Source of the DNA: Thermoproteus tenax Kra 1
GTDB lineage: Archaea > Thermoproteota > Thermoprotei > Thermoproteales > Thermoproteaceae
NCBI RefSeq assembly: GCF_000253055.1
Contig: NC_016070.1
Location: forward strand, 720,001-752,000
DNA: 32,000 bases
Direction of reading: 5' to 3'
Under the pieces are notes generated by a model. It searched no databases. It saw only the letters and a program-made list of their open reading frames with translations, and was not told the DNA's origin. Of this stretch, positions 5,182 to 23,190 are shown piece by piece. The position numbers and the translations under genes were made by a program. Within the stretch, counting starts at the first letter, position 1. Each line of letters begins with the position of its first letter.

Positions 5182-5282
5182 TGGGCCCGCCGGGATTCGA
5201 ACCCGGGATCTCCCGCGCACCTAGGCGTTGTCGGCGCGGGCGCCATGTAAGGCGGGCATCCTAGCCGCTAGACTACGGGCCC
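5182..5282 (-). tRNA. tRNA-Val (anticodon TAC) with an approximately 28-nt intron at the canonical 37/38 position
   Basis: The reverse complement reads GGGCCCG TA GTCT AGCGGCTA GGAT G CCCGC CTTACA [TGGCGCCCGCGCCGACAACGCCTAGGTG] C GCGGG AGATC CCGGG TTCGAAT CCCGG CGGGCCC A. All four stems pair. No CCA is encoded. A TTTT run follows about 12 nt downstream, and a TTAAAAAC box lies about 25-30 nt upstream. Confidence 0.85.
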
Positions 5283-5386: not shown

Positions 5387-6541
5387 GTGGATATATTCCA
5401 GAGATATCGCTCAGAGGTAGCCAGGGCGAGGGATATAATAGCTAGAGGCAAGTTTCTCGCTGTAGTACACGACGGGACGGCTCATGCAGACGACACAATA
5501 GCCGCAGCCTTGTTATATAGTGCGGGAGCCGAGGAGGTCTACAGAGTGAGCCAACAAGATGAAATGCTCGAAATAGTGAGGGGGAGGCGTGCCGTAATCG
5601 CTGATGTGGGCTATAAGTACTACGAAGCCCTCAAGTCGGCCGGCGAGGTGGCCATATTAGACCATCATGCTCCCAATGGAGAGCCCGAGTACGTGGAGTT
5701 GCCCTCTTCCCTAATGCAGACTGTCGAGGCGCTCGGCTTGAGACTTAGGCCTAGGATGCAGATGTTATTTACGGCGGCAGACCTAGTGGATAGATTCGGC
5801 GCACTTTCGGCGAAGAGATGGCTCGGCATCTATGGAGCCTCGCTTAACTTGGCCCTCTCCTCATATTTCGGAGCAGTGACGAAGGGCAAGTATGCCGACT
5901 ATAACTTTCTCTCCCTAGTGGCGGAGGCCGCGTCGTCCGATTTCGACGTCCAAGACATAGCTGAATATTCAAAGTCCTACTCAGCAACTGTCGGCGCGAT
6001 CGATGTAGACCCTGAGAAATACCCTAGAGCTCTGGCTCTTCTCAGACTCATGAAGGAGGCATCGCGGGGGGATACATCGATCTATCTGAGCCCGGAGGCC
6101 TATAAGACAGGCTTCGGGATAGATTTTTCGGCGCACGCCGCGCTGGCAGTGCCTCAACTGAGCGAGTACCTAGCCAAGGGGCTCTCGAGATATTTCAACG
6201 AGAACATAAGGGCCATCAAGACAGCTGAGGAGAGACGGTTTGTTATAATAGAGAAGTCCATTAAGGCGATAGCTGTGGAGGACTCCGTATCGCCCACAGC
6301 TCTATGGAATGCACTATTGGACTTAGGCGTGTTGAGGGAGGAGGAGCCGGCTATAGTCGCCGTCAGAGATCTGAGGAACCCAGGCGCATATTCCCTCTGG
6401 AGACCCGATCGCCACAAGCAGATAGACTTCAGAAAGTTGGCCGGCGATAGGGTCATCTTCAGACACCAGTCTGGTTTCATGGCCGTCGTCAGAGCCGACA
6501 GCGCGGAGGACGCAGTCAAATACGCCCTTATGTATCTGTGA
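5387..6541 (+). CDS. MYG1/UPF0160-like (DHH-type) metal-dependent hydrolase, divergent
   Basis: 384 aa with a GTG start. The N-terminal VVHDGTAHADDTIAAALL resembles the MYG1 H.G.FH.DE..A.ALL motif. ADVGYKYY...ILDHH resembles the DVGG.YD...DHH motif. The rest of the protein is not recognisable. Confidence 0.55.
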   Translation: MDIFQRYRSEVARARDIIARGKFLAVVHDGTAHADDTIAAALLYSAGAEEVYRVSQQDEMLEIVRGRRAVIADVGYKYYEALKSAGEVAILDHHAPNGEPEYVELPSSLMQTVEALGLRLRPRMQMLFTAADLVDRFGALSAKRWLGIYGASLNLALSSYFGAVTKGKYADYNFLSLVAEAASSDFDVQDIAEYSKSYSATVGAIDVDPEKYPRALALLRLMKEASRGDTSIYLSPEAYKTGFGIDFSAHAALAVPQLSEYLAKGLSRYFNENIRAIKTAEERRFVIIEKSIKAIAVEDSVSPTALWNALLDLGVLREEEPAIVAVRDLRNPGAYSLWRPDRHKQIDFRKLAGDRVIFRHQSGFMAVVRADSAEDAVKYALMYL

Positions 6542-6933
6542 CCTTCAAGCCAACTCAAGATTGGGCCGAGAAGCTATGCCGAGAGATAACCGGAAATAAG
6601 AGGGCTCCTCAAGAGCTATCCATAGTGGCCGTCGAGGTGCCAGACGAGTTGGGATACGGCCCCACTATGACTCTGTATTTTAAGTTCGATGAGAGGGGGC
6701 GGTGCATATCGTCGCAAATTATTAGGGGGGAGAGGCCAGCTAAGTATATGCTGTCAGGTAGATACGAGGACCTTATACAGATCTTGGAAGGTCGCCTTTC
6801 CCCATTCGCGGCAGTTCCATTGGGGAAGCTCCATGTGATGAGGGGAAGTTTGGGGGAGCTAGCCGAGTATATGCCTCTGGCCCTGGAGATCGTCGAGGCG
6901 GCCCGACGTATTAGCTCACGACAGCACCAATAG
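6538..6933 (+). CDS. SCP2 (sterol-carrier-protein-2-like) domain protein
   Basis: 131 aa. The GTG start overlaps the stop of the upstream gene by 4 nt. The C-terminal half, MLSGRYEDLIQILEGRLSPFAAVPLGKLHVMRGSLGEL, looks like the SCP2 fold signature (..G.l.p..A...Gkl...G). The last about 8 codons lie inside the left direct repeat of the AT-rich island. Confidence 0.6.
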   Translation: MTFKPTQDWAEKLCREITGNKRAPQELSIVAVEVPDELGYGPTMTLYFKFDERGRCISSQIIRGERPAKYMLSGRYEDLIQILEGRLSPFAAVPLGKLHVMRGSLGELAEYMPLALEIVEAARRISSRQHQ

Positions 6934-7149: not shown

Positions 7150-8394
7150 TTAATCAATCCTAAGCCCCAAATATTTTTCAGAAACATATTTTATAACATT
7201 ATAGGTCTTAACCAGGTCATCAATAGCGACATATTCATTGTACGAGTGGGCCAACGTCAAATCACCAGGCCCATAAACCACCGTAGGTATTCCCCTAAGC
7301 CTTAGGTACCTTCCATCAGTCGCTCCAGTTATTATTATTGGCTTAGGCTCGGCCCCTTGCTTAGCTATACCATCTCTAATTAACTGGACAATCATCTCAC
7401 CGGAGCTTGTGTAGTTTGGCTCACTTAGATCAATAACTTCAACTTCAGCTAAGCCACTCAACTCACCCCTTAACTTATCTACCACATTACTCGGCGAGAC
7501 ACCTGGTGGAACTCTCATATCTAATTCAAGCTCAGCATAATCGGGAACCATATTTATTTTCGAGCCACCTTTAATTACGCCTGGGTTAAAGGATACTAGT
7601 CCTACGGTAGCTCTCAAGTCATCTTTGCTGAGCCTTAAACCGGATTTAAGGGCGCCCTCTAGGTAGACCTCAGTAGCATTATCTATCGCTTCAATTAAAT
7701 CTTGAGGATGTTTAATACCTCTGTTAAATTCATCAATGCAAATCCGAGCCCTTTCAATGGCCTTTATGAGCTTGACTATGGCGTTATCCCCAAGTATAGG
7801 CAAGCTACCGTGCGCAGGTTTACCCCTAGTAACAAGCCTAACCTGGCAGAGGCCCTTCTCGCCAATACAGTATTTATCAAAACCAGTTGGCTCAGCTATT
7901 ATGGCTGCATCCCCGATCAGTATGTTATCCTTAACCAAAGCCTCTACACCTGCGTGTCCGCCGACCTCCTCATCGGCTGTGGCTGAGAAAATCAATGTAC
8001 CGGTGCCCTTCTTCTCAACCAGAGGGGCCAACTCGGCGAAGACCATCATTATGACCGCCAATCCGCCTTTCATGTCTGTTGAACCTCTACCGTAGATCTT
8101 GCCTTCCACTATTTTGCCCGAGAAGGGCGGATAGGCCCACTTACTGATATCACCGGGCGGCACCACGTCAGTATGACCGTTTAATATTAGGGTGGGTTTG
8201 CCTGAACCAACCTTAGCAATTAAATTAGGCTTACCCTTAACATACTCATAAATACTGCTTGAGAAACCTTTTGCATTTAACCAATCTTTGATAAAATCTG
8301 TAACATTAGTAACATCCCCGGGAGGGTTAACACTGTTTATCTGAACTAAACGTGAAGTCAATTCGGCTAATTGGTTCTTTAAGTCACTAGACAT
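7150..8394 (-). CDS. M20 family metallopeptidase/deacylase, AT-rich island copy
   Basis: The ORF is open from 8439 (429 aa), but I prefer the internal ATG at 8394 (MSSDLKNQLAELTSRLVQINS), which gives a typical M20 N-terminus. Motifs present are LNGHTDVVPPGD, GRGSTDMKGG, ADEEVGG and YGPGDLTLAHSYNEYV. It is a clear paralog of the 2589-3782 gene but uses AT-rich codons. Confidence 0.85.
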   Translation of the reverse strand: MSSDLKNQLAELTSRLVQINSVNPPGDVTNVTDFIKDWLNAKGFSSSIYEYVKGKPNLIAKVGSGKPTLILNGHTDVVPPGDISKWAYPPFSGKIVEGKIYGRGSTDMKGGLAVIMMVFAELAPLVEKKGTGTLIFSATADEEVGGHAGVEALVKDNILIGDAAIIAEPTGFDKYCIGEKGLCQVRLVTRGKPAHGSLPILGDNAIVKLIKAIERARICIDEFNRGIKHPQDLIEAIDNATEVYLEGALKSGLRLSKDDLRATVGLVSFNPGVIKGGSKINMVPDYAELELDMRVPPGVSPSNVVDKLRGELSGLAEVEVIDLSEPNYTSSGEMIVQLIRDGIAKQGAEPKPIIITGATDGRYLRLRGIPTVVYGPGDLTLAHSYNEYVAIDDLVKTYNVIKYVSEKYLGLRID

Positions 8395-8467
8395 GTTATA
8401 TCCTATTAGATCAAAGATATAAGCATTATGGGATAACACTTAAAAAGCCTTCAATATTGATATTTGT

Positions 8468-8674
8468 ATGGATATCAAGAACCTATTGAAAATAATATTG
8501 CTGATAATAGTGCCGTGGATCTTTATAGTCTTCCTGGCACCGCTCTACAATAGGACTTACCCTGAGATTGGCGGGTGGCCGTTTCTATGGTGGTACTTGT
8601 TTGCATGGATTTTCATACAACCAATATTAACATATATAGTATATAAACTCATTGATAAAGACAGCAAATTATGA
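8468..8674 (+). CDS. Small two-TM membrane protein, DUF3311-like (typical companion of SSS transporters)
   Basis: 68 aa and very hydrophobic, with a GGWPFLWWYLFAWIF segment. The stop overlaps the start of the downstream symporter (ATGA at 8671-8674). This pairing is typical of DUF3311-SSS gene pairs. Confidence 0.6.
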   Translation: MDIKNLLKIILLIIVPWIFIVFLAPLYNRTYPEIGGWPFLWWYLFAWIFIQPILTYIVYKLIDKDSKL

Positions 8675-10137
8675 ATTTTACCATAGCTGATTATTCGATA
8701 TTTTTTACAATAGTTGGATTGACAGTAGTGGCCGCGTTCTTAGGCAGTAGGTGGAGAGCTCCTGACTTCTCCAAAATAGCCGAGTGGAGTATAGGTGGCA
8801 TGAAGTTTGGAGCACTTATAGTCTGGTTTCTCATGGGAGCTGATATATACACAGCCTACTCACTAATAGCAATTCCAGGCGCCGCGTATTCACTGGGTGG
8901 GTTCATCCTATATTCTGTTGTTTACGGCTCAATATCTTATCCGTTTCTCTACATAGTTGCTACTAAGTTCTACAGAATAGCTAAGCGTAAAGGCTACATA
9001 ACCGCTGGCGACTACGTTAGGGATAGGTTTGATAGCGATGTGTTGGCGTTGCTTATATCGCTCACGGGCATCGTTTCAATGCTTCCTTACATTGCCCTCC
9101 AGATAGTTGGTATTAGGTACGTACTGGATGCTATGGGCTTTCCAACTATTCCAAGCTTCGTGATAGCTTATATAATAGTTGCTGCGTTCGTATCGCTAAG
9201 CGGCCTAAGGGGACCAGCCTTGAGCTCATTAATAAAGGATGTTGTATTGTGGGGCGTTATACTCACAGTGATCATCACATTGGGCATACGCTTTGAGGGG
9301 TTTGGCCCCATATTTGCTCAAGTCGGGCCATCCCACTACCTAATACCTAGTAAATTAATCGTGGGTTATATAACGTTGGCTCTCGCCAGCGGAATATCAT
9401 GGTTGCTCTTCCCCAACCTTCTTGTTGGATTGCTCGGCTCTAAGAGCGAGGATGTAATTAAGAAAAATTCTGTGTTTCTACCTTTTTACCAAGTGTGGTT
9501 GCTTTTCCTAGCTATAATGGGGTTGATAGCCTTAGCCAATAACCTTGTACCAAATAATATATCCAGTTTAGCATTTCCTTACGTTCTTAGTGCATACTTT
9601 CCAACTACGTTTGTTGCGATAGCCTTCGCCGGCATAGTCATAGGTAGCATGGTTCCGGCTGGTTTGCAAAGTCTCGGCGCAGCCAATCTAATCACAAGGA
9701 ATATCTATCTGGGAATCATCAATAAGAGGGCCACTGAGAAACAACAAGTATTTTGGGGTAGAGTGGCTGTGTTTATAATGATAATTGCATCGTTAATATT
9801 TGCATTGGTTCCAGCAGCTAGCGGATTAATATTCTTCTTATTGACCTTTTCATATGCCTGGCTTCTACAAACCTTACCGGCAATAATAATGTCAATGTAT
9901 TGGTATAGCTTGGACAAGTACAGCGTAACTGCTGGATGGGTCGTCGGCACCGGATTGGTTACCTATGGCTTAATAACGGTAGGATTCGCATCATCGCTAC
10001 TACCCTGGTTCTACTATATATATGTTGGCTTTCTAGGATTAGTTGTTAATTTAACGACAGTGTTAGTGGTGCATTTAATAGTAAAGATTCTTAAAGTTAA
10101 AGTAACTAGTAAATTAACACCACAAGAACTTCAATAA
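8671..10137 (+). CDS. Sodium:solute symporter (SSS) family transporter
   Basis: 488 aa, polytopic with about 12-13 hydrophobic segments. The N-terminal region, GGMKFGALIVWFLMGADIYTAYSLIAIPGAAY, matches the SSS family pattern. Substrate unknown. Confidence 0.85.
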   Translation: MNFTIADYSIFFTIVGLTVVAAFLGSRWRAPDFSKIAEWSIGGMKFGALIVWFLMGADIYTAYSLIAIPGAAYSLGGFILYSVVYGSISYPFLYIVATKFYRIAKRKGYITAGDYVRDRFDSDVLALLISLTGIVSMLPYIALQIVGIRYVLDAMGFPTIPSFVIAYIIVAAFVSLSGLRGPALSSLIKDVVLWGVILTVIITLGIRFEGFGPIFAQVGPSHYLIPSKLIVGYITLALASGISWLLFPNLLVGLLGSKSEDVIKKNSVFLPFYQVWLLFLAIMGLIALANNLVPNNISSLAFPYVLSAYFPTTFVAIAFAGIVIGSMVPAGLQSLGAANLITRNIYLGIINKRATEKQQVFWGRVAVFIMIIASLIFALVPAASGLIFFLLTFSYAWLLQTLPAIIMSMYWYSLDKYSVTAGWVVGTGLVTYGLITVGFASSLLPWFYYIYVGFLGLVVNLTTVLVVHLIVKILKVKVTSKLTPQELQ

Positions 10138-12910: not shown

Positions 12911-13169
12911 GCTCTTACAATCGAAAGTCTCGCCCTATAGGGCGGGGAGATTTGAGCATATAACTTTCATGGCAGAGCAGTGAAGAGGGCGGAGGAAGGC
13001 CTAAATAGCAGTACGCGCCATAAGACGGGGCGGGCCAACCTACTCGTAAGATGGCTTCGGCGGGAGGACGCCACAATGCCCGCCCCAGTTAACCCCGAGG
13101 AGGGGCAGCGGGCGAGGCCCCAACGGTGGAGGCCCAGCATGAGTGGGGAGGAGGTCATATAATCTCCAC
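12911..13169 (+). repeat. GC-rich non-coding paralogous element, copy A (putative structured ncRNA or non-autonomous repeat)
   Basis: It aligns with copies B (reverse-complemented) and C. Its parts in order are the palindrome CGCCCTATAGGGCG (12931-12944), CATATAA (12956-12962), TTTCATGGCAGAG..GTGAAGAGGGCGGAG, a GC-rich body, and the end CATGAGTGGGGAGGAGGTCAT followed by the hairpin GTGGGGAG...CTCCAC. Indels relative to B/C break every reading frame. Confidence 0.5.
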
Positions 13170-13311
13170 AAAATATCACTAAACGATAAAATTTCCAACG
13201 ATAAAAGGAAACAGCCTCTCCGCGGCCCTTTTCGCGGGCTATAGCGCGAGCTTTCAAATGGGCCGAACTGAGGTCCACCTCAGCTACGTCCCCTCGTCCC
13301 AGAGGAGACCC

Positions 13312-14496
13312 CTATCTATAGGCAACCAGTGCTTCCCCAATCCTTCTTATACCCTCAATCAGTCTCTCGGTCTTTTCAGCGACGAAGGAGATGCGCACGG
13401 CAGCTTTATAAACTTCACTGAAATAATTGCCCGGCACTAAGGCGACGCTGTATTCCTGCAACAGCTTCTGCGCAAACGCCTCGCCGTCATCAATATAGCT
13501 AGATAAATCTACAAATATAAACATGGAACCTTGCGGTACTTTGAACTTTCCCTCGGGGACGTAGCGCTTCAACGCATCTACGGCTGCATCTCTACGGGCC
13601 CTATATGCGGCTATAAAATCTTTTACATATTTCATTCTAATATCTGAACGTAAATATATTGCAACCATCTTTTGGGCAAACGACGGCGGGCAATACACCA
13701 TCTCCTCATTGACCAACTTTATTCTTGATACGGCCTCCTTTGGGCCATATACATAGCCTAGCCGCCATCCAGGTATCGCAGGATCTTTTGAAAAAGTATT
13801 AATAGAAATTACATTTTCTGGAGCGAGCTTATATAAGTATACATGTTCACCTTCATATATCATTGTCTTATATGCTTCGTCTGTGATCAGCCAGATATCG
13901 TTGTCAATGGCTAAGTCCGCTATAGCCTTCGCCGAGTCTGGAGATATCAGTCTGCCGGTGGGGTTATCAGGAGACACTATTATCACGGCCTTAGTCTTGG
14001 GGGACACAAGCTCTTTCAACCTCTCTACGCTTGGCTGATAACCTTCCTCTAAGGAGGTCCTCAATCTAACTACGCGCGCTCCGAAGTATTCCAACAGAGG
14101 TTTATAGCCAAAGTATGTCGGATCAAAGAGTATTACCTCATCGCCAGGCTCCAAGATGGATGCAAGAGTTGAGAACATCGCGGCTTGTCCGCCGGCGGTG
14201 ACCACTATATGGTCTGGGCTCACGTCCAGCCCGCCCAGCCGCCTCAGATCCTCTGAGATGGCCTCCCTTAGCTCGTAGATCCCCTGGCTTGGAGTATACC
14301 CGTATAGCTCCATGCTCTCCTCTTGGAGCAACTCGGCCATCTTTTGTCTTACCTCTAGCGGTGGAGGTATACTCGGTTGGCCCGCCGACAATATTATTAC
14401 GTCTTTCCCCTCCCTTTTCAGTCTCTCCCTCAATGCGTCAATCTTTCTCGTAGGACTCTCCCTCAGATAGGCGAGTCTCTTCGAGAAGTCTCGCAC
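13312..14496 (-). CDS. Class I/II pyridoxal-phosphate aminotransferase (aspartate aminotransferase-like)
   Basis: 394 aa with a GTG start. A TTTATAATATT box lies about 20-30 nt upstream. It has the PLP-lysine motif FSKDPAIPGWRLGY plus the SPDNPTG and TDEAY blocks. Confidence 0.9.
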   Translation of the reverse strand: MRDFSKRLAYLRESPTRKIDALRERLKREGKDVIILSAGQPSIPPPLEVRQKMAELLQEESMELYGYTPSQGIYELREAISEDLRRLGGLDVSPDHIVVTAGGQAAMFSTLASILEPGDEVILFDPTYFGYKPLLEYFGARVVRLRTSLEEGYQPSVERLKELVSPKTKAVIIVSPDNPTGRLISPDSAKAIADLAIDNDIWLITDEAYKTMIYEGEHVYLYKLAPENVISINTFSKDPAIPGWRLGYVYGPKEAVSRIKLVNEEMVYCPPSFAQKMVAIYLRSDIRMKYVKDFIAAYRARRDAAVDALKRYVPEGKFKVPQGSMFIFVDLSSYIDDGEAFAQKLLQEYSVALVPGNYFSEVYKAAVRISFVAEKTERLIEGIRRIGEALVAYR

Positions 14497-14575
14497 AGCG
14501 TTAGGACTTTGTAATATTATAAATAATTATATGTATATTCTACAATTGTGGGGGAAGAAGTTGGGCAATTCTTAC

Positions 14576-16048
14576 CTAGCCTCCCTCGGCCTTTCTAAAT
14601 ATCGGTACGCCGGCCTCTGAATAGCTTATCTCCCACTCCTCCAGAGTTCTTTTGTCCACTATGTGGATTCGAGCTCCGTTGAGGTCTATATGGTACGGCC
14701 CAATCTCCTCGACGGTCTGACCTATTATATGTAGCGCCAGTGCCGTAGACGCAGCTACTATGGCGCCGCGAAGGGGCGGCACCAACTTGGAGGCATCGCC
14801 GGCGGGCTCGCCTCTTATGTTCTTCAACATATTTATAAATTCGGCTAACGCCTCGGCCGACCCGAGGAGCTCCAGCGCTCTCACGGCCCACTTAATCGCT
14901 ATGCCCGCCTCAAGACCGAGCCGTGCGAAAAACCACGCATCGCTTATGTTGGCCGCCAGCTTTGCCCTCTCCATCTCCAATATCTTCAGTAGCTCGTTGG
15001 GCGAAACGCTTGGGGCCGTCTCTTCTGCGAACACCTCAGGCCTCTTTCCGAGGAGAACCTCAATGTACCTCTTCAATATCTGCCACACGTCAAGACCCCT
15101 ATTCGAGCCCCAAGCATCGAAAGATCTATCGATTATCTCATTAAGCCAACTTATGGCGTTGCGCAGAGGCTCCCTCCAAGGCGCCGGGCCGTCGCATCCA
15201 CAATCCCTTGTCCAACGTCCCAACCCGTGGGGGCAGCTCCAAGACGTGCCAGGGATTACCTCGACATCTCCCAGAGGCGGTTTTTCGGCCATTAAACCCA
15301 GATTGACAAACTTAGAGCCATATTTAGCCACAACCTCGGCTAAGACGCGCTCCTCGCCGCGTTTGTGGTGGCCGAAAGTCTCGCCGTCTAACGCTATTAA
15401 GGTCAACGAATCTTGTGGCGCCGACTCAACGGCTCTCTGGAGTTCCCCCTTCTCTCCAAAGGCCACTCTGTCCGACAGCGCCTCATCTCTTACGAATACC
15501 TTTATCTCTCTGCCCGAGGGTAGAACCACTCTATAGGGGCCTCCAGCTCTCCTGCCCTTGATCTGTCTCTGAGTTAATATAGTGAATTTTATGTCGTACT
15601 CGGCCAGCACCTCCAGCGTCTCTATGTCGACGGCCATCTCGGGCAGCCACATCCCCTCCGGATATCTACCGAAATGTCTTTCGAAGTGTTTTATCCCCCA
15701 CCACACTAAGACCTCTTTGTTGCGGCGATCCAACAACGGGAGGATCACGTGGTAGTAGGGATGAGCCACCGCGTTGCCGTGACCCCACCTCTCCCGCCCC
15801 ACCTCGTCTGCCTCAATTATAGCGCTATAGACGTGGGGCCTCCTCCGTCTAAGCCAGTCGAGTAGGGTTGGGCCGAAATCGAAGCTGATCCAAGTGTAGT
15901 TGCCCAACAGCGCGTTGGGCTCATAGCACTCATGTGTTATCCTCTCGTTCCAATGTCTGAAGGGCGCCGCGGAGGGCTCAGGTAATATATCCTCAAACCA
16001 AGGATCCTCCCTGGGAGGCTGATAAAAGTGGCCATGTATGACGATCAC
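14576..16048 (-). CDS. Glycoside hydrolase family 57 protein (alpha-glucan-active enzyme)
   Basis: 490 aa with a GTG start. GH57 signatures are present: HGHFYQPPRE at the N-terminus, GMWLPEMAV (nucleophile Glu region) and LDGETFGHH (acid/base Asp region). Confidence 0.85.
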   Translation of the reverse strand: MIVIHGHFYQPPREDPWFEDILPEPSAAPFRHWNERITHECYEPNALLGNYTWISFDFGPTLLDWLRRRRPHVYSAIIEADEVGRERWGHGNAVAHPYYHVILPLLDRRNKEVLVWWGIKHFERHFGRYPEGMWLPEMAVDIETLEVLAEYDIKFTILTQRQIKGRRAGGPYRVVLPSGREIKVFVRDEALSDRVAFGEKGELQRAVESAPQDSLTLIALDGETFGHHKRGEERVLAEVVAKYGSKFVNLGLMAEKPPLGDVEVIPGTSWSCPHGLGRWTRDCGCDGPAPWREPLRNAISWLNEIIDRSFDAWGSNRGLDVWQILKRYIEVLLGKRPEVFAEETAPSVSPNELLKILEMERAKLAANISDAWFFARLGLEAGIAIKWAVRALELLGSAEALAEFINMLKNIRGEPAGDASKLVPPLRGAIVAASTALALHIIGQTVEEIGPYHIDLNGARIHIVDKRTLEEWEISYSEAGVPIFRKAEGG

Positions 16049-16077
16049 GCACTCGTGCGATAGCTAATAATAAAAAG

Positions 16078-16356
<279 letters not shown>

Positions 16357-16374
16357 ATCCTTCTCACTGAGAAG

Positions 16375-16387
16375 AAAAATTTTAAAT
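16375..16387 (+). promoter_or_regulatory. BRE/TATA box (AAAAATTTTAAAT) for tRNA-Glu
   Basis: The box is centred about 27 nt upstream of tRNA nucleotide 1 (16409). It is preceded by the inverted repeat TTCTCAcTGAGAA. Confidence 0.5.
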
Positions 16388-16408
16388 CGAGCGACCCATA
16401 CGGCTCAA

Positions 16409-16500
16409 GCCCCGGTCGTCTAGCCAGGTCAAAGGGTGCGCCCGGCTAGGGATATGGGCCTTTCGAGCCCAGGACCCGGGTTCAAATCCCGGCCGGGGCA
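16409..16500 (+). tRNA. tRNA-Glu (anticodon TTC) with an approximately 17-19-nt non-canonical intron between the D-loop and the anticodon stem
   Basis: GCCCCGG TC GTCT AGCCAGGTCA... [about AAGGGTGCGCCCGGCTA] ...GGGATA TGGGC CTTTCGA GCCCA GGAC CCGGG TTCAAAT CCCGG CCGGGGC A. The acceptor, anticodon and T arms are perfect. The gene is 92 nt, against about 74 nt for a canonical tRNA. The intron segment CCGGCTA can pair with the D-loop TAGCC(A)GG. Exact splice sites are not determined. Confidence 0.8.
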
Positions 16501-16523
16501 CGTTCTAAAGCATTGTCCAATGG

Positions 16524-19316
16524 ATGGTGCCCGCTAGAGAAGACAAAAATATAGGAGCAAAAACCGCCGTGGCCTTCGGCTTGTTACACCCCAAGCTTAG
16601 GGAAGTTTTGGACGAGTTGGGCTACAGAGAGCCCACCGCGATCCAGAGCGCCGCCATACCCGCCGTGCTGTCTGGCGATCACGTCTTAATCGTCGCGCCG
16701 ACAGGCTCCGGCAAGACTGAGACAGCGATACTGCCCCTCTTCTCTAGAATGTTAGACGAGAGGATAAAGCAGTGTACACAGCTTCTATATATCACTCCGT
16801 TGAGGGCCCTCAATAGAGATCTTCTCAGGAGGATCTCGGCAATAGCTGAGAGGATTGGGCTTTCTGTTGGAGTCAGACACAGCGACACTACCGAGGCCGC
16901 TAGAAAGCAGTTGTACAAGTCGCCTCCCCACGTATTGATAACTACGCCCGAATCGCTCCAGATTCTATTGCTCAACAGATCTTTGAGGAGCTCTCTGAGG
17001 TGTATCCGCGCCGTCGTTGTGGACGAGGTTCACGAGCTTGTTGAGAACAAAAGAGGCGTTCAACTGGCCTTGGGCCTAGAGAGGTTAGTCGAACTAGCGG
17101 GCGAGTTCCAACGGATCGGGCTCTCGGCCACCGTGGGAAACCCAGAGCTAGTGGCAAGCTTTCTCGGCGGATCTAACAGGCGCGTGCGCGTGATCAATGC
17201 GACGTCTTTCAAGGCATACGAAATCGATGTAGTAGCGCCCTCGCCCTCAGAGGACGACTACGCTGACGCAGATAAGTACGACGTAACTCCCGAGACTCTA
17301 GCGCGTATTAGATATATCGCCGATGTAATCAAGAGAACAAAGGGCAGCGTCCTCATTTTTACAAACACTAGGGATGGGGCTGAGTTCTTGGCGGCGAAGC
17401 TCAGAGCCTTGATAGGAGATACAGTGGAGGTTCACCACTCGTCTCTTTCAAGAGACCACAGGCTCTCAGTTGAGGAGAGACTAAAGTCGGGCGCTCTGAG
17501 GGCCGTAATAGCTACGTCGAGCTTAGAGCTCGGCATAGATATTGGCCACATAGATCTAGTGATCCAGTATAATTCCCCTAGACAAGTAATCAGGATAGTC
17601 CAACGCGTCGGCCGAAGCGGGCACAAGCTCGGCGCCGTCTCGCGGGGGCTTATAGTAGCCTCAGATTTAGAGGACCTCTTAGAGTCGGAGGTGATAGCTG
17701 AGCGGGCGACCAAAGGCGAGCTCGAGAGAGATCTCGAGTATCACAGAGCCGCCTTAGACGTGCTCTTGCACCAGATAGTGGGAATGGCTCTGGAGGCCAA
17801 GCTCGACGGCAGATCCTTGGCGCTCGAGGACGTGATGCGCATCATCAAAAGGGCTCATCCATACTCCGATGTAACGCCCGAGGACCTAGGGCTCGTGTTA
17901 AACTTCGCGGCTCGGCACAAGCTCTTGGATGGGCTGAGACCCAGAAGGGGGGCTCTCAAGTATTACTTCGACAATGTGTCGACCATACCTGACGAGAAAA
18001 GCTACAAAGCCGTAGATCAGACCACTGGAAAGATAGTGGGAGAGCTTGACAGAGAGTTCGTCTATACAACTGAGCCGGGCACCAAGATTATCTTGTCGGG
18101 GAGAGCTTGGATAATATCCAAGGTGGAGGGCGGCTCAGTCCTTCTTTATCCGGTCTCAGACTCATCTGGCGCGTTGCCAGGCTGGCTCGGCGAAGAGATA
18201 CCAGTCCCCAGGGAGGTGGCCGATGAAGTATGCAGAAGGAGGGCGGAGGCCTTGAGGGCAGCGCTAAGGGGGGAATATTCTGGGGAGTTCGTGGACACGG
18301 AGGGTCTGTCTGAATCAAATATACCTGGCCCAGGGACTATCAGAGTCCACCTCTTTGGCCGCTACGCAGTGGTGCATGCGTGTATTGGAACTAAGGGCAA
18401 CGAGGCGCTCGGCATGTATCTGTCCCGCCATCTGTCCGCCTATTTGGGGCCCATCGGCTATAGGTCTGACGCCTACCGAGTGCTGTTGATACACAGAGAA
18501 CCGATCCAACAGAAGTACATAGCAGAGGCATTCACAAAGGATCAAGCCTATATATACAAGACATTGATAAACGCCGTCAAGGCCTCTCGTATGTTCAGAT
18601 ATAGGTTCCTGCAAGTCTCACAGAGGGTCGGCCTACTGTCCAGAGATGCCGAGGAGGTGCCCTCAAAGTTAGTCGATGTATACTCCGAGGACCTCCCCGG
18701 CGTTGAGGCATTGAACGAAATATTCACTGAGAAGCTTGACGTCAAATCGTTGTTGGAGCTAATAGAGGGCATTAGATCGGGCAAATATAGGCTTGAAATG
18801 GAGCGGCTGCCGGGGCCCACTTCATTGGACAAGCCGTTGCTTGAGGAGGCGCTACGGGTAGACTTCACTTACAAGGGGCTCTCCCAAGAGGCCGTGAAAG
18901 ACATAGTCCGCCGACGCATATTGAGCAGAGAAACTACCCTCCTTTGCCTCAACTGTGGCTGGATCTTCAGAGGGCGCGCCTCGCTTCTGCCCGAGAGACC
19001 TACGTGTGCCAAGTGCGGAATGCCCACGTTGGCCGTAATTAAGGGCAATTTGGAGCGCGCACTGGAGGTATGGAAGAAGTTTAAAGCCAGGCGCAGATTG
19101 AGCAAAGACGAGGCGAAGCTTATGGACGAGCTGAGGCAGAGCGCTTCTATAGTCATAGAGCATGGAAGACTTGGTATATTGGTGCAACTGGCCCATGGAG
19201 TTGGGCCGAAGACTGCTATAAGAGTCTTGAACAAAGTCTTGGCAGGCGACGATATCTGGGGCGCAATAATTGAGGCAGAGAGACAATATGCGGCCACTAG
19301 GGCCTTTTGGGATTAA
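16524..19316 (+). CDS. Lhr-type large superfamily-2 DNA helicase (DEVH box) with C-terminal Zn-ribbon and HhH module
   Basis: 930 aa. Helicase motifs are present: Q-motif TAIQ, Walker A APTGSGKT, DEVH (VVDEVHELVE), SAT and QRVGRSGH. The C-terminal region has CLNCG...C.KCG (four Cys) and a helix-hairpin-helix-like LAHGVGPKTAIRVLNKV. Confidence 0.85.
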   Translation: MVPAREDKNIGAKTAVAFGLLHPKLREVLDELGYREPTAIQSAAIPAVLSGDHVLIVAPTGSGKTETAILPLFSRMLDERIKQCTQLLYITPLRALNRDLLRRISAIAERIGLSVGVRHSDTTEAARKQLYKSPPHVLITTPESLQILLLNRSLRSSLRCIRAVVVDEVHELVENKRGVQLALGLERLVELAGEFQRIGLSATVGNPELVASFLGGSNRRVRVINATSFKAYEIDVVAPSPSEDDYADADKYDVTPETLARIRYIADVIKRTKGSVLIFTNTRDGAEFLAAKLRALIGDTVEVHHSSLSRDHRLSVEERLKSGALRAVIATSSLELGIDIGHIDLVIQYNSPRQVIRIVQRVGRSGHKLGAVSRGLIVASDLEDLLESEVIAERATKGELERDLEYHRAALDVLLHQIVGMALEAKLDGRSLALEDVMRIIKRAHPYSDVTPEDLGLVLNFAARHKLLDGLRPRRGALKYYFDNVSTIPDEKSYKAVDQTTGKIVGELDREFVYTTEPGTKIILSGRAWIISKVEGGSVLLYPVSDSSGALPGWLGEEIPVPREVADEVCRRRAEALRAALRGEYSGEFVDTEGLSESNIPGPGTIRVHLFGRYAVVHACIGTKGNEALGMYLSRHLSAYLGPIGYRSDAYRVLLIHREPIQQKYIAEAFTKDQAYIYKTLINAVKASRMFRYRFLQVSQRVGLLSRDAEEVPSKLVDVYSEDLPGVEALNEIFTEKLDVKSLLELIEGIRSGKYRLEMERLPGPTSLDKPLLEEALRVDFTYKGLSQEAVKDIVRRRILSRETTLLCLNCGWIFRGRASLLPERPTCAKCGMPTLAVIKGNLERALEVWKKFKARRRLSKDEAKLMDELRQSASIVIEHGRLGILVQLAHGVGPKTAIRVLNKVLAGDDIWGAIIEAERQYAATRAFWD

Positions 19317-19330
19317 TAAGGGGCGTAGTT

Positions 19331-19669
19331 ATGCTCATGATCTCGATACACACAGACGAGGCGGGGGAGAATACGGCTAGAATAATCGAGGTAGACGGAG
19401 AGGTCGTAGTATCGATGGACACATTCATAGAGGGCGTCGTAGTTCCGCCGGACGCCGAGGTCGTCGAAATAGGGGGTCGATATAAGCTCTATGTCGTGAG
19501 GAGAGACCGGCCCGAGGGCCGCATTGAGTTTCTAGTATATGACAATGGAACAAAAAGACAGCTTATATCAGCTAGATATATTGGGTCTATCAGGGGCGAA
19601 GACGCCGTCAAGCTGTTGAAAGGCCTTCTGGACGCAATAGCCAAGACGTACGATTTATCCAAGATCTGA
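19331..19669 (+). CDS. Hypothetical protein
   Basis: The track ORF starts at a TTG (19307). I prefer the ATG at 19331 (MLMISIHTDEAGE...). It lies 15 nt after the helicase stop on the same strand. There are no recognisable motifs. Confidence 0.5.
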   Translation: MLMISIHTDEAGENTARIIEVDGEVVVSMDTFIEGVVVPPDAEVVEIGGRYKLYVVRRDRPEGRIEFLVYDNGTKRQLISARYIGSIRGEDAVKLLKGLLDAIAKTYDLSKI

Positions 19670-19705
19670 TAATTAACATTTAAAAATAACGAGGGACTCT
19701 CCTCC

Positions 19706-20836
19706 ATGGACGCAAAAATATTGGCCGTCGGTCTGATAGTGGGCCTTCTGATAGGCATCGGCATAGGCTATCTATTACATCAACCTTCGCCGACGGCTGT
19801 TACTACTCCGATCACCACTACGGCCGCGCCAAGCACGCCTGCAACGTTCTCTGTGGGGGCCGCAGGCACTCTCAAGTTTTCATTCAACGATCTATTAAAG
19901 CTCTACTCTCGACTGTACCCAAATATACCGACAGGCCAGCCGCTCTATGAGGGCAGTGGAAAACTGGCACAAGACGAGGCGACGAGCAAACAGTTCAGCT
20001 TTGTGGCGTCGGCTGACACAACCACTATACCTGCGGTTCTCTTCAAAGACAATCTGACGGACTACGAAGTCGCGTTTGGCGTCACTCAGGTGGTTATAAT
20101 CGTCAACTTGAACACGACTGCGGGCAGAGAGGTATACGAGCTCTGGAGACAAGCCCAGAGCTTGCAGCCCTTGTCCGCCCAGTGGAACTCGACGTGGAGA
20201 CAGATCTTTGCCATAATAGCTCTCAACTCCAGCACGGCCGTCGGCGTGTCCGACCCCTTCACCGACCCATCCGGCTATCAGGCCATGTGCATGCTTAAGT
20301 TGGCTGGTCTAACCTTCTTCGGGAACTCGGACCTCCTGTTTGATGCAATATATAGGAATCCTTCGAAGTATTTCATGAGGACTACCGAGGTGGATCTATT
20401 GTCCTTAATGCCAGGGGGCCAGATCCAGTTTATTTTATCCGCGTATCAGTCTAACGCCATTCCTCAAGTCAAGGAGTACCGCGGGCTTACATATATCACG
20501 CTTCCGCCTCAGATAAACTTAGGGTCTCTAAATTATACAGACTACTACCACAGCGTGAGCGTAACTTGGACCGAGGCCGGTAAGACGAAGACCTTCGCGT
20601 GCAATCCCGTGATATACACGTTCACAATACCGAGGACAGCGCCTAATCCGGAGGCGGCTGTTTACTTTGCCTTGCTCATCTTCAGCCCACAGGGACAGAA
20701 AGTGCTTAGAAGCTACGGAATAGACCCCATAAGCCCTGGGATCGTCTACGGCAATATTTCAGATGTGCCAACTCCGTTGAGACCCTTTGTGGTTTCTCTG
20801 TCGCAAGTGCCTCAATACTCCTCGGCATTTCCCTAA
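19706..20836 (+). CDS. wtpA: ABC transporter substrate-binding protein, WtpA/ModA-like (tungstate/molybdate class)
   Basis: 376 aa. It has an N-terminal membrane anchor and a Thr/Pro-rich linker. The blocks AAGTLKFSF, GSGKLAQ, ASADTTTIP and DPFTDPSGYQA parallel the AGSL..PF, SGS, ASAD..IP and DP.CGYR blocks of Pyrococcus WtpA as I recall them. Confidence 0.6.
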   Translation: MDAKILAVGLIVGLLIGIGIGYLLHQPSPTAVTTPITTTAAPSTPATFSVGAAGTLKFSFNDLLKLYSRLYPNIPTGQPLYEGSGKLAQDEATSKQFSFVASADTTTIPAVLFKDNLTDYEVAFGVTQVVIIVNLNTTAGREVYELWRQAQSLQPLSAQWNSTWRQIFAIIALNSSTAVGVSDPFTDPSGYQAMCMLKLAGLTFFGNSDLLFDAIYRNPSKYFMRTTEVDLLSLMPGGQIQFILSAYQSNAIPQVKEYRGLTYITLPPQINLGSLNYTDYYHSVSVTWTEAGKTKTFACNPVIYTFTIPRTAPNPEAAVYFALLIFSPQGQKVLRSYGIDPISPGIVYGNISDVPTPLRPFVVSLSQVPQYSSAFP

Positions 20837-21630
20837 TGTTTAAAATTTTTTTAGTAATTTTATTTCTTATATTGTTTTTCTTTTTCATCTATCCTATAAT
20901 TCTCCTTATATATATTGCCCTCCCTGGACTTGAGGGTGCATTGCTCACTAAGTCTTTCCTAGAGTCCTTTGGCTTAACCGTACTTATATCCAGTGCAGCC
21001 TCGCTCGTGGCCGTGGTACTAGGGGTTCCCACAGCCTATATACTCACTAGATATAACTTTCCGCTTAAACAAATAGTTGATGCCCTTATGGACATACCAA
21101 TCGTTATCCCCCACACCGTGGTTGGCATAATGGTCATCCTGGCGTTCGCAGACTATGGGCTGGGGCCCTACCTTAACTCGCTCGGCCTCAAGATAATAGA
21201 TGCCATCCCGGGCGCCATTATAGCAGTGTCTTATCTATCGGCGACATATGCCCTTAGGAGTATACAGAGTGCGCTCAGGCTGTTGGACCCAGAGTTAGAA
21301 AACGTGGCGCGAACTTTAGGCGCAAGCCCGCTCAGATCGTTCCTCTATGTGGTTCTGCCGAATATAAGTGGCGCGATCGCCGACGGTGCGCTCCTTTCTT
21401 GGGCCAGGTCAGTCTCAGAGTCGGGGGCTCTGTTGGTGGTGGCCTACTATGTGATCCTGGGTACTCGCTCGATTTATCCGGCCTCGATATACATATATCA
21501 GTCCTACATCGGCGTCGGTCTCGCAGATGCGGTGAAGTTCTCGGCCGCGCTTGTCCTCATAGTCATCTCTATATTTTTGGCATATAGGGCTCTCTTGGGC
21601 CATGTTAGAGCTAAGGGGGCTAAGGGCTAA
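20836..21630 (+). CDS. wtpB: ABC transporter permease (WtpB/ModB-like)
   Basis: 264 aa. The start overlaps the wtpA stop (TAATG). The EAA-loop-like segment is LENVARTLGASPLRSFLYVVLPNISGAI. The first about 30 codons are extremely AT-rich. Confidence 0.75.
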   Translation: MFKIFLVILFLILFFFFIYPIILLIYIALPGLEGALLTKSFLESFGLTVLISSAASLVAVVLGVPTAYILTRYNFPLKQIVDALMDIPIVIPHTVVGIMVILAFADYGLGPYLNSLGLKIIDAIPGAIIAVSYLSATYALRSIQSALRLLDPELENVARTLGASPLRSFLYVVLPNISGAIADGALLSWARSVSESGALLVVAYYVILGTRSIYPASIYIYQSYIGVGLADAVKFSAALVLIVISIFLAYRALLGHVRAKGAKG

Positions 21631-22516
21631 GGTCGGCGACTTCTCGCTGGGTCCTATCGATCTAAGCGTTGAGAGCAAGTACTTAGTCGTGATGGGCCCC
21701 AACGGCTCGGGCAAGACTACATTGCTGAAGTCAATAGCTGGACTCATCAGAAGCGAGGGCTCGGTGTTGTTGGACGGAGAGGACATCTCTAAGCTTCCGC
21801 CCGAGAGGAGGGGGATAGCATACGTTCCGCAATCTTACAGTCTCTTCAACAACATGACGGTTTACGCCAATATAGAGTTCGGCTTGAAGATGCGTGGAGT
21901 GCCGCGTCGCGAGAGGCGGAGGCTAGTTGTCGATATAGCGGAGCGTTTGGGCATAGACGATTTCTTAGATAAAAAGCCGACTGAGCTTTCCGGTGGACAA
22001 AAACAGCGAGTGGCTCTGGCGAGGGCCCTCGTCGTAAGGCCCCGCTTGTTGTTGTTGGATGAGCCTATGTCAAATCTCGATGTAGGCGTTCGAGAGGATG
22101 CGTTGTTAATTCTGAGAACCATACAGAGGGAGTACGGAACGCCCGTGCTACACGTGACGCATGATCGAGAGGAGGCCTACGCTCTAGCTGAACAACTAGC
22201 AGTCATGTACGGAGGCAGGATAGTCGAAGTCGGAAGGCCCGAAGATCTGTACTCAAGGCCCCGGCACGCGATAACAGCCCAACTAGTTGGGTTTTACGTG
22301 CTCAGGTCTGGCGATAAGTGTATCGGCGTTAGGCCCAACGGCGTTATTGTTGGCTCTGGCTCGCTGAGGGGGCGGGTGCTCGACGTAATAAGGGGGAATG
22401 ATAGGATGAGGGCTATAATCGAGGTGGACGGCCAACGCATTTCCGCATACATCCACAGCGATATAAGAGGTGAGATAACTCTAGATATAATTGATCCATT
22501 AATATTAAATTGTTAA
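21602..22516 (+). CDS. wtpC: ABC transporter ATP-binding protein (WtpC/ModC-like) with a C-terminal TOBE-like domain
   Basis: 304 aa. It has Walker A GPNGSGKTT, the signature LSGGQKQRV, Walker B LLLLDEP and the H-loop VTHD. It overlaps the permease by 29 nt. Confidence 0.8.
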   Translation: MLELRGLRAKVGDFSLGPIDLSVESKYLVVMGPNGSGKTTLLKSIAGLIRSEGSVLLDGEDISKLPPERRGIAYVPQSYSLFNNMTVYANIEFGLKMRGVPRRERRRLVVDIAERLGIDDFLDKKPTELSGGQKQRVALARALVVRPRLLLLDEPMSNLDVGVREDALLILRTIQREYGTPVLHVTHDREEAYALAEQLAVMYGGRIVEVGRPEDLYSRPRHAITAQLVGFYVLRSGDKCIGVRPNGVIVGSGSLRGRVLDVIRGNDRMRAIIEVDGQRISAYIHSDIRGEITLDIIDPLILNC

Positions 22517-22725
22517 CTAATAAATAATAAAGAAAATAATATTAGCGCTTGAATTAATATTAAGATTAGTATTACTACTATTTCATCTTTTTTAATACAT
22601 TGTAGTATACGCTTTCCACACCCCGGAGTTTTTGCGACAAATATAATATATGTGACAAAGACGATCAGAGAGTACGCGGCCAATGCGCCCACGAGCGCAA
22701 GCATGAGCCACTCGCGCATGGCCAA
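22513..22725 (-). CDS. Small hypothetical two-TM membrane protein
   Basis: 70 aa. An ATTTAAAAT box lies about 20-27 nt upstream of the ATG, which fits leaderless spacing. There are two hydrophobic helices. The 3' half is very AT-rich, and the stop overlaps the wtpC stop convergently. It could be spurious. Confidence 0.4.
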   Translation of the reverse strand: MAMREWLMLALVGALAAYSLIVFVTYIIFVAKTPGCGKRILQCIKKDEIVVILILILIQALILFSLLFIS

Positions 22726-22745
22726 CCTATAGGATCATTTTAAAT

Positions 22746-22925
22746 CTGGGGTTTGCCCATTCGCCCCCTTTCAAAGAGCGGCGCCCCGGCCCTCCCCCGG
22801 GGTCAGATTTTTGGCCCGCCCCCGCCAGACGCCGCGAGGGCGGGGCGGAGGCGAGAGGGGCACGGCCGTGCCCCGGCGCACGGGCGCGGCTGATCGGCCG
22901 TACCCCCAGGGCCGGGGATGTGGCT
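22746..22925. other. GC-rich, hairpin-dense non-coding tract (function unknown; possible structured RNA)
   Basis: It contains a perfect 18-nt palindrome GGGGCACGGCCGTGCCCC (22857-22874) and the hairpin CCCCGG-ccctcc-CCCGGGG. CCGCCCC...GGGGCGG pairing is possible, as is a closing helix CTGGGGT (22746-22752) with ACCCCCAG (22902-22909). The only ORF (22727-22942, minus) has junk R/G/P/A composition. Confidence 0.3.
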
Positions 22926-22929
22926 GACA

Positions 22930-23190
22930 GTACGAACAGCAAGCCCCGCCCTTTAGGATGGGGTAGGTCTTAAGCCATCTATTTTCATGGCAGAGTGGTG
23001 AAGAGGGCAGAGAAGGGCTTAAACAGCAGTGCGCGCCATACGGCGGGTCGGCCTGCGTGTAAGACGGCCCAGGCGGGGGACGCCGCAGTGCCCGCCCCAG
23101 CCGCGGCCCATCAACCCCGAGGAGGGACAGCGGGCGAGGCCCCCACAGTGCGGCCCCCGCATGAGCAGGAAGGGAGCCGTAGAGATAGCA
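22930..23190 (+). repeat. GC-rich non-coding paralogous element, copy C
   Basis: Its parts in order are GTACGAAC, the palindrome-like CCCCGCCCTTTAGGATGGGG (22944-22963), TTTCATGGCAGAGTGGTGAAGAGGGCAGAG, a 5' half similar to A, and the core 23061-23166, which is identical to the reverse complement of B. It diverges from A and B after CATGAGC. Confidence 0.5.

Follow-up and report, generated by a model that had tools for sequence, protein, structure and literature searches.

Three related repeats in the window

The stretch of DNA analysed here, referred to as the window, comprises 32,000 nucleotides of the Thermoproteus tenax Kra 1 chromosome (NC_016070.1, positions 720,001 to 752,000) and carries three copies, A, B and C, of a repeat of about 245 bp each (240-248 bp). 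An earlier reading of the letters alone, called here the original prediction, had put these repeats forward as a novel family of structured RNA. It had mentioned as an alternative a derivative of an insertion sequence (IS) of the IS200/IS605 type, which would carry a hairpin at either end and resemble a miniature inverted-repeat transposable element (MITE) or a palindrome-associated transposable element (PATE). Our analysis favours the alternative: with a probability of about 0.8, the three repeats represent a PATE, a non-autonomous member of the IS200/IS605 family about 245 bp long, in diverged copies whose ends match those of ISDka2, an IS carried by Hyperthermophilic Archaeal Virus 2 (HAV2). 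On this view they are selfish DNA of a familiar kind rather than a new gene for structural RNA. Three further copies, P1, P2 and P3, were found in Pyrobaculum islandicum DSM 4184 and are used below together with A, B and C.

The three window segments are indeed paralogous and align after B has been reverse-complemented, with pairwise identities of 73-77% over about 250 nt. As first described, they have a common order of parts: a GTAYRAA/TTAC-AAC motif, the palindrome CGCCC-NNNN-GGGCG, an AT-rich box, the block TTTCATGGCAGAG-(2-3 nt)-GTGAAGAGGGC and a GC-rich body. A pattern of 31 nt from the core has exactly three occurrences in the window and none in 100 shuffles. The GC content of the body is 64-74%, against 51.7% for the window, and our recount again gave 48 G+C among the 60 nucleotides at 23101-23160. 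The shared ending CATGAG(T/C)GGGGAGG(A/C)GGTCAT of A and B, the 10-nt and 1-nt indels of copy A and the exact identity of B and C over a 106-nt core were likewise found as described. Similarity between the copies is bounded exactly by the inferred element ends, and the flanks are unrelated; in all six copies it runs from just after (T/A/G)TAC or AAAC up to TCAT. The features, named after the parts of an IS200/IS605 element, are as follows.

12919-13158, plus strand: copy A, with refined unit boundaries
12915-12918, plus strand: copy A, TTAC, inferred left cleavage and target site, directly 3' of which the inter-copy similarity begins
12919-12948, plus strand: copy A, left end AATCGAAAG, 92-95% identical to the HAV2 left end by blastn
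12924-12927, plus strand: copy A, candidate guide tetranucleotide AAAG
12929-12946, plus strand: copy A, left-end hairpin CTCGCCC-TATA-GGGCGGG, folding at -5.6 kcal/mol as single-stranded DNA
12949-12964, plus strand: copy A, TATA-like AT-rich box GATTTGAGCATATAAC, with a counterpart at this position in five of the six copies, putative promoter
12965-12990, plus strand: copy A, invariant block TTTCATGGCAGAG-CA-GTGAAGAGGGC, able to fold into a hairpin UUUCAU/GUGAAG
12991-13132, plus strand: copy A, GC-rich core, probably a decayed 3' part of tnpB (putative omega-RNA region)
13133-13158, plus strand: copy A, right end, an impaired hairpin CCCAGC-ATGA-GTGGGG followed by the 10-nt tail AGGAGGTCAT
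16341-16094, minus strand: copy B, the best preserved of the three
16345-16342, minus strand: copy B, TTAC
16341-16311, minus strand: copy B, left end, with its hairpin at 16329-16316
16293-16267, minus strand: copy B, invariant block
16266-16121, minus strand: copy B, core
16119-16104, minus strand: copy B, right-end hairpin CCCCGC-ATGA-GCGGGG (-11.7 kcal/mol, z = -3.1)
16103-16094, minus strand: copy B, tail AGGCGGTCAT
22934-23180, plus strand: copy C, both ends decayed
22930-22933, plus strand: copy C, GTAC
22944-22963, plus strand: copy C, degenerate left-end hairpin (left-end z about 0)
22983-23008, plus strand: copy C, invariant block
23009-23154, plus strand: copy C, core
23155-23180, plus strand: copy C, degenerate right end
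16213-16108, minus strand, and 23061-23166, plus strand: identical 106-nt tract of B and C, their longest common substring
16357-22929: segment of about 6.6 kb, inverted with respect to relatives L002 and L004, with a tRNA gene, an Lhr helicase gene, an ABC transporter operon and an open reading frame (ORF) of 70 amino acids

Folding of the ends as single strands of DNA gave good hairpins at the left of A and at both ends of B, and degraded ones at the right of A and at both ends of C. The right hairpin of A is not predicted because of a single A.G mismatch; the GGGGAGGAGGTCA of this end is the same as in the right-end tail of HAV2. The right end of copy C is intact in a strain whose neighbouring proteins are 99% identical (L012: GCGGGGAGGGAGTCAT).

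The ends are those of an IS200/IS605-family element

A blastn search of copy B against phage records matched HAV2 (NC_014321, our L011). The insertion in this genome is annotated as ISDka2 and contains tnpA at 7306-7674 and tnpB at 7671-8933; its first gene product matches Y1_Tnp with 126.9 bits and the second has the OrfB_IS605 and TNB domains of TnpB. The 5' end of the repeats, TTAC/AACAGAAAG (the slash marks the element boundary) with the hairpin CGCCCTTTAGGGCG, matches the left end of ISDka2, TTTAC/AACTGAAAGCCTCGCCCTTCAGGGCGGGGA (L011 7156-7190), which lies 116 nt upstream of tnpA. For copy B this match extends over 30 of 31 nt (97%), and over the shared left end as a whole, TTAC/AACNGAAAGCCTCGCCCTTNAGGGCG, the identity is 94-97%. 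The 3' end of the repeats, a hairpin followed by AGGMGGTCAT, matches the right end of ISDka2 (8921-8949), CCTCGCCCTTTAGGGCGGGGAGGAGGTCAG, which is situated at the stop codon of tnpB with its hairpin overlapping the stop. The tails GGGGAGG(A/C)GGTCA of A and B match this end, GCGGGGAGGAGGTCA being the tail in common, and in the repeats too the right-end hairpin overlaps the stop of what would be the former tnpB frame. The window copies differ from ISDka2 in that they have neither tnpA nor tnpB, in that their core aligns with the 3' end of the HAV2 tnpB only over about 10 nt and a short peptide motif, and in that the right-end hairpins of A, B and C are 4 nt shorter. The original prediction had named a match to a known IS terminus as the result that would turn its RNA family into an ordinary repeat; since the ends match both the left and the right end of ISDka2, this is the result obtained, and the MITE/PATE-like alternative with a hairpin at each end is the one that stands.

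The details of the ends agree with this assignment. The left end opens with AAC-GAAAG ahead of its hairpin, and the GC-rich core has about 150 nt. A, B, P1 and P3 possess the left-end hairpin CGCCC-NNNN-GGGCG (the pattern was observed three times against 0.11 expected) and B, P2 and P3 the right-end hairpin, and the termini AACAGAAAG... and ...GGTCAT are not inverted repeats of each other. A search for a conserved flanking tetranucleotide, suggested in the original prediction, gave a TTAC-like one 5' of the copies: TTAC in A and B, GTAC in C, ATAC in P1 and AAAC in P3, with TTAC also preceding both the left end of ISDka2 and a mini-PATE in HAV2. A, B, P1 and HAV2 have AAAG, a candidate guide whose pairing is putative, on the 5' side of the hairpin foot, and behind the right-end hairpin there is a 10-nt tail, AGGMGGTCAT (TCAG in HAV2), after which the similarity between the copies ends.

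The 17.7-kb HAV2 genome also contains two unannotated mini-PATEs, 43-nt fusions of a left and a right end with a single hairpin, at 6692-6734 on the minus strand and 3011-3053 on the plus strand.

The model for the mechanism of this family is IS608 of Helicobacter pylori, which uses TTAC as its target, inserts 3' of it and has an AAAG guide 5' of the hairpin foot (PMC3201880). The repeats resemble it in having TTAC as the putative left cleavage and target site, AAAG on the 5' side of the left hairpin, and a putative right cleavage site at the same distance, 10 nt, beyond the 3' foot of the right hairpin. They differ in that TTAC is about 10 nt from the hairpin foot, compared with 19 nt in IS608, and in that the right tetranucleotide is TCAT or TCAG rather than TCAA. 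By analogy with established IS608 biology we infer mobilization in trans: a Y1 (HUH) TnpA encoded elsewhere would bind the two hairpins on the top strand and cleave after TTAC and after TCAT, the excised element would form a single-stranded circle, and this circle would insert 3' of another TTAC without target duplication.

A second group for comparison are the PATEs of Haloquadratum walsbyi and other haloarchaea, for example HqIRS71 (PMC3119063). Like these, the repeats are too short for a transposase, have no terminal inverted repeats but near-terminal palindromes related to IS605-type transposons, contain what appears to be a disrupted remnant of the C-terminal tnpB coding region, and occur with core deletions and in terminal-only mini versions, here the 43-nt elements of HAV2. 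They differ in having a host from the Thermoproteaceae (Crenarchaeota), in showing no sequence similarity to the haloarchaeal elements, and in possessing a TATA-like box and an invariant core block of 26-27 nt. The elements correspond to the published definition of a PATE (PMC3119063), and no target duplication is seen in five of the six copies.

Copies in Pyrobaculum islandicum and mobility

The copies in P. islandicum were reached through two annotated genes, Pisl_1408 (by an ORF match) and Pisl_1486 (by a profile match). Three copies lie in two 20-kb loci (three in 40 kb, against three in 10 kb of the window). Of these, P1 is full length, the left end of P2 is degenerate and its right end canonical, and both ends of P3 (L014 18494-18752, minus strand) are canonical. 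P3 splits the MNT (NTP_transf_2) nucleotidyltransferase gene of a HEPN-MNT pair, leaving 57 N-terminal codons upstream and the rest downstream. When the two flanks were joined, the match to Pfam NTP_transf_2 covered profile positions 5-85 with 55.2 bits, compared with 5-41 and 44.9 bits before. A run of C in this MNT gene also contains a frameshift.

None of the three window copies is present at the syntenic loci of the closest relatives represented by long contigs, Thermoproteus-like genomes with about 75% GH57 identity in which the neighbouring genes are kept. In the strains with 99% identical proteins, the contigs assembled from short reads break inside the repeats.

Several observations weigh against the PATE assignment or leave a gap in it. 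A, B and C have a 4-nt deletion variant of the canonical right-end hairpin, no tnpA or tnpB gene lies within the window, and no parent IS with the same core was found. CAACGC is present on both flanks of P3 in the same codon phase; it could be a 6-bp target duplication, which would be atypical for IS200/IS605, or it could be due to chance, and no flanking direct repeat was found for A, B, C, P1 or P2. No empty site could be defined at nucleotide resolution, the nearest relatives without the copies being too diverged. Exact scans of genome and metagenome contigs with the core motif CCCCGAGGAGGGNCAGCGGGCGAGG returned nothing, a result that does not show absence because this motif is not conserved in Pyrobaculum. 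Among other searches, blastn against plasmids gave no match, the left-end pattern retrieved only HAV2 itself from IMG/VR, the 5' motif was found neither in the JGI metagenomes nor in IMG/VR, and a genome scan anchored on the Lhr helicase protein gave only a distant Thermoplasma locus. Several proteins of the window had no exact counterpart when looked up, probably owing to different calls of the start codon.

On the same sequence as P3, a tnpB element of P. islandicum (L014 13900-15460) comes after a hairpin (CCCCGCCCTTAATGGCGGGG), about 220 nt of GC-rich DNA and an ORF of 57 codons without a Pfam family, and its right-end hairpin CCCCGCCCTAAAGGGCG follows directly after the RuvC-III motif.

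Probable recombination between the copies

The copies are mosaics. The 5' core of C is 93-94% identical to those of P2 and P3, though the GH57 proteins of the two hosts share only 55% identity, whereas the 5' core of B is only about 50-55% identical to the other copies (54% to C); the 3' cores of B and C, in contrast, are 100% identical. This pattern argues for a recombining, horizontally moving mobile family and against a vertically inherited RNA gene. As judged from the sequences, gene conversion or recombination between B and C appears to have left the 106-nt tract.

B and C are oppositely oriented and bound the inverted segment at 16357-22929. In the relatives L002 and L004 the gene order is Lhr to ABC transporter, the 70-amino-acid ORF (minus), GH57 (plus), aminotransferase (plus) and MscS (minus). 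Dispersed copies of this kind would serve as substrates for homologous recombination, and B and C would have exchanged sequence and inverted the intervening 6.6 kb or so. Recombination between B and C is the simplest reading of the inversion, of the 106-nt identity and of a hybrid copy found in one of the strains with 99% identical proteins.

This hybrid copy (L008 1-120, Logan SRR28178316) is adjacent to the GH57 gene and combines the promoter-proximal and TATA region of the C type with a B-like body; about 98 nt of its core are deleted, with GAGG microhomology at the junction. In general, strains with 99% identity in the neighbouring proteins show marked differences in the repeats. We also noticed that an aldo/keto reductase gene which the relatives have between the Lhr and solute-binding protein genes (L002 5477-6508) is not in the window (19307-19669).

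Directly 5' of copy C there is a 180-nt stretch (22750-22929) of 76% GC, which is missing in the relatives; their spacer between the 70-amino-acid ORF and GH57 has only about 50 nt. The stretch weakly resembles the GC-rich 3' flank of a P. islandicum tnpB (73% over 67 nt; L013 4890-4961), its folding z-scores are only -1.2 and -1.4, and it may be a remnant of a second IS or of an omega-RNA.

RNA genes, protein genes or regulatory cassettes?

The original prediction regarded the repeats as free-standing, non-mobile genes for structured RNA with promoters of their own. They are indeed GC-rich intergenic islands in a hyperthermophile, with a TATA-like box and a sequence conserved between Thermoproteus-like and Pyrobaculum genomes, but most of the tests speak against such genes. 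At Rfam gathering scores only three tRNAs reach threshold in the window and none of them lies inside the repeats. The housekeeping RNAs (tRNA, RNase P, SRP, C/D and H/ACA sRNAs) gave no match there, in agreement with the original prediction. The minimum free energies of the three copies compared with dinucleotide shuffles gave z = -1.24, +0.23 and +0.52, which is no stability beyond that given by composition. RNAalifold with four and then six copies returned covariation terms that were penalties (+1.88 and +2.7 kcal/mol), and its consensus fold differed between the two runs; neither alignment shows covariation. The long-range helix that had been drawn through the body had to be given up as well: among the six copies not a single pair is changed on both sides, the CCAC/GTGG pairing that had been taken as compensatory in A requires a shift of register, and the central 9 bp are paired in 61% of cells, essentially in B and C alone. 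As the termini are those of an IS, one copy sits within a coding gene, and the copies are missing in syntenic relatives, mosaic and variable between strains, we consider a novel structured-RNA family very improbable.

Still less can be said for a regulatory function, in which the repeat would be a portable promoter cassette whose palindrome is a transcription-factor site upstream of the TATA box, controlling the neighbouring genes. The order of palindrome and AT-rich box would suit this, and B lies 45 nt upstream of the GH57 gene in the same orientation. However, A, C and P1 are directed at the 3' ends of convergent genes, P3 is inside a gene, the neighbouring genes share no functional theme and the palindrome is the left-end hairpin of an IS, which makes such a cassette very improbable. 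That the repeats are small protein genes, either through forward ORFs of 59-68 codons or through a reverse ORF ATGACC...CCATGA, is scarcely credible. ORFs are open on both strands, the reverse-strand ORF of A and B runs exactly from GGTCAT (ATGACC) to TTTCATGG (CCATGA), and the P. islandicum copies are annotated as the hypothetical proteins Pisl_1408 and Pisl_1486. On the other hand, chance open frames are expected at about 70% GC, the frame in which homologous nucleotides are read varies from copy to copy, substitutions show no preference for any of the three codon positions, no Pfam or NCBIfam model matches any frame and the reverse-strand ORF has no homologue. A phmmer search with the 60-codon ORF of A against 1.84 billion representative proteins retrieved only itself and one ORF over another repeat copy. 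The original prediction had dismissed these ORFs as junk, and the missing codon periodicity and protein-family matches agree with that view.

The core and a possible guide RNA

Transposition of IS200/IS605 elements needs only the ends, yet the interior is conserved, which suggests an additional function. A block of 26-27 nt is identical in A, B, C, P1 and P3, that is in five of the six copies, except for its 2-3-nt spacer, and several further blocks in the GC-rich core are conserved across the two genera. From the sequence we read the core as probably a decayed 3' end of tnpB. In one frame the loop of the right-end hairpin contains a stop codon, TGA in A, B and C and TAA in P1, as it does in the tnpB of HAV2. 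In the tnpB-like frame P1 reads ...ITPARGNGRDPHSGNPA up to this stop, compared with ...NILITPSPGRDRGNGLK at the C-terminus of the HAV2 TnpB, and its peptide ITPARGNG resembles ITPSPGRDRGNG of HAV2, the RGNG codons differing at third positions only. Furthermore, the right-end region of HAV2 itself gives hits to the Rfam models sot0042 (47 bits) and HgcC (44 bits). The likeness consists of short motifs: tblastn and nucleotide alignment of the core with the 3' end of the HAV2 tnpB were not significant, and comparison with the tnpB genes near the P. islandicum copies gave matches only at the level of the hairpins.

Could such a core still be transcribed and used? Transcription of the 3' ends of IS1341-type tnpB genes yields HgcC and the sotRNAs (PMC4615843, PMC4247193), PATEs have been reported to encode omega-RNAs often (PMC10055086), and an RNA derived from a PATE has been demonstrated in Halobacterium (PMC4615843). 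The TnpB-associated omega-RNAs, sotRNAs and HgcC (RF02656, RF00062) cover the 3' end of tnpB and the right-end hairpin, and the window copies have a hairpin of the right-end type, a probable tnpB remnant and a possible internal promoter; Halobacterium (VNG_R0052) and Geobacillus are known to have RNAs derived from PATEs. In the window the internal AT-rich box would drive a transcript starting about 25 nt downstream of it, near GAAGAGGGC, and running through the core and the right end into the flank, to stop 15-25 nt past TCAT. This transcript would be an omega-RNA- or sotRNA-like guide for TnpB in trans and would favour retention of the element. We put forward transcription from the internal box, yielding an omega-RNA-like guide used by a TnpB encoded elsewhere, as a tentative proposal whose odds are somewhat below even. 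The fuller version, in which the elements are TnpA-mobilizable guide-RNA cassettes with their own promoter, a diverged, uncatalogued omega-RNA scaffold including the invariant hairpin block and a guide taken from the right flank, and in which they program a TnpB encoded elsewhere, is doubtful. Genes for TnpB with related hairpins do occur near the P. islandicum copies.

Against a guide RNA stand the folding energies and covariation penalties given above and the decay of the ends of A and C. The window copies also have no recognizable scaffold structure, in contrast to known omega-RNAs. In a relaxed search the left-end hairpins of A, B and C scored 19.6, 28.8 and 15.7 bits with HgcC (RF00062), against a threshold of 50, sot0042 gave 14.7 bits in the window copies against a threshold of 88, and P3 scored 16 bits; these matches are far below gathering and rest on the hairpin alone. 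Because the score thresholds failed, we have not filed the elements under HgcC or sot0042. In a survey of small RNAs in Pyrobaculum (PMC3388794), which used only uniquely mapping reads and RNA size-selected to 15-70 nt, we found no description of the family.

It may therefore be that the PATE is a fossil derivative of an IS by internal deletion, in which only the ends mattered and the core is functionless filler giving no RNA, a possibility that we take seriously although we rate it short of an even chance. It would account for the missing covariation and thermodynamic signal, the low identity of the 5' core of B to the others, the loss of about 98 nt of core in the strain with 99% identical proteins and the decayed ends of A and C, and Haloquadratum PATEs with disrupted C-terminal coding remnants have been described as non-coding relics (PMC3119063). 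It does not readily explain why the 26-27-nt block and the other core blocks were kept across two genera while adjoining segments vary freely, nor why the AT-rich box was retained upstream.

Other features of the window

Intron-bearing tRNA genes are typical of Thermoproteales. Two tRNA genes in the window, at 16409-16500 (plus strand) and 5182-5282 (minus strand), contain insertions of 25-29 nt (introns), one of them in the region of the D-arm; Rfam finds both and ARAGORN, which reported a single tRNA in the window, misses them. The first lies next to copy B and was considered as an integration site, for which we found no support: the left end of B is merely about 65 nt from the tRNA gene. 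At 5387-6541 on the plus strand there is a 384-codon ORF without a Pfam match at E <= 0.001.

Implications

With the repeats assigned to a PATE family, what looked like a lead to a new structural RNA of archaea proves false, and 'hypothetical proteins' such as Pisl_1408 and Pisl_1486 become repeat annotations. A PATE family in the Thermoproteaceae whose ends match an IS borne by a virus hints at a route of transfer between genera, and the window offers a concrete example in which dispersed copies of a PATE drive an inversion in the chromosome and make strains differ. Should the core encode an omega-RNA, the elements would be useful as compact natural examples of guides for TnpB in trans, from organisms growing near 90-100 °C. 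Should they indeed be guide-RNA cassettes, they would represent a gene-less passenger of TnpB homing in hyperthermophilic Crenarchaeota, spreading between Thermoproteus-like and Pyrobaculum hosts.

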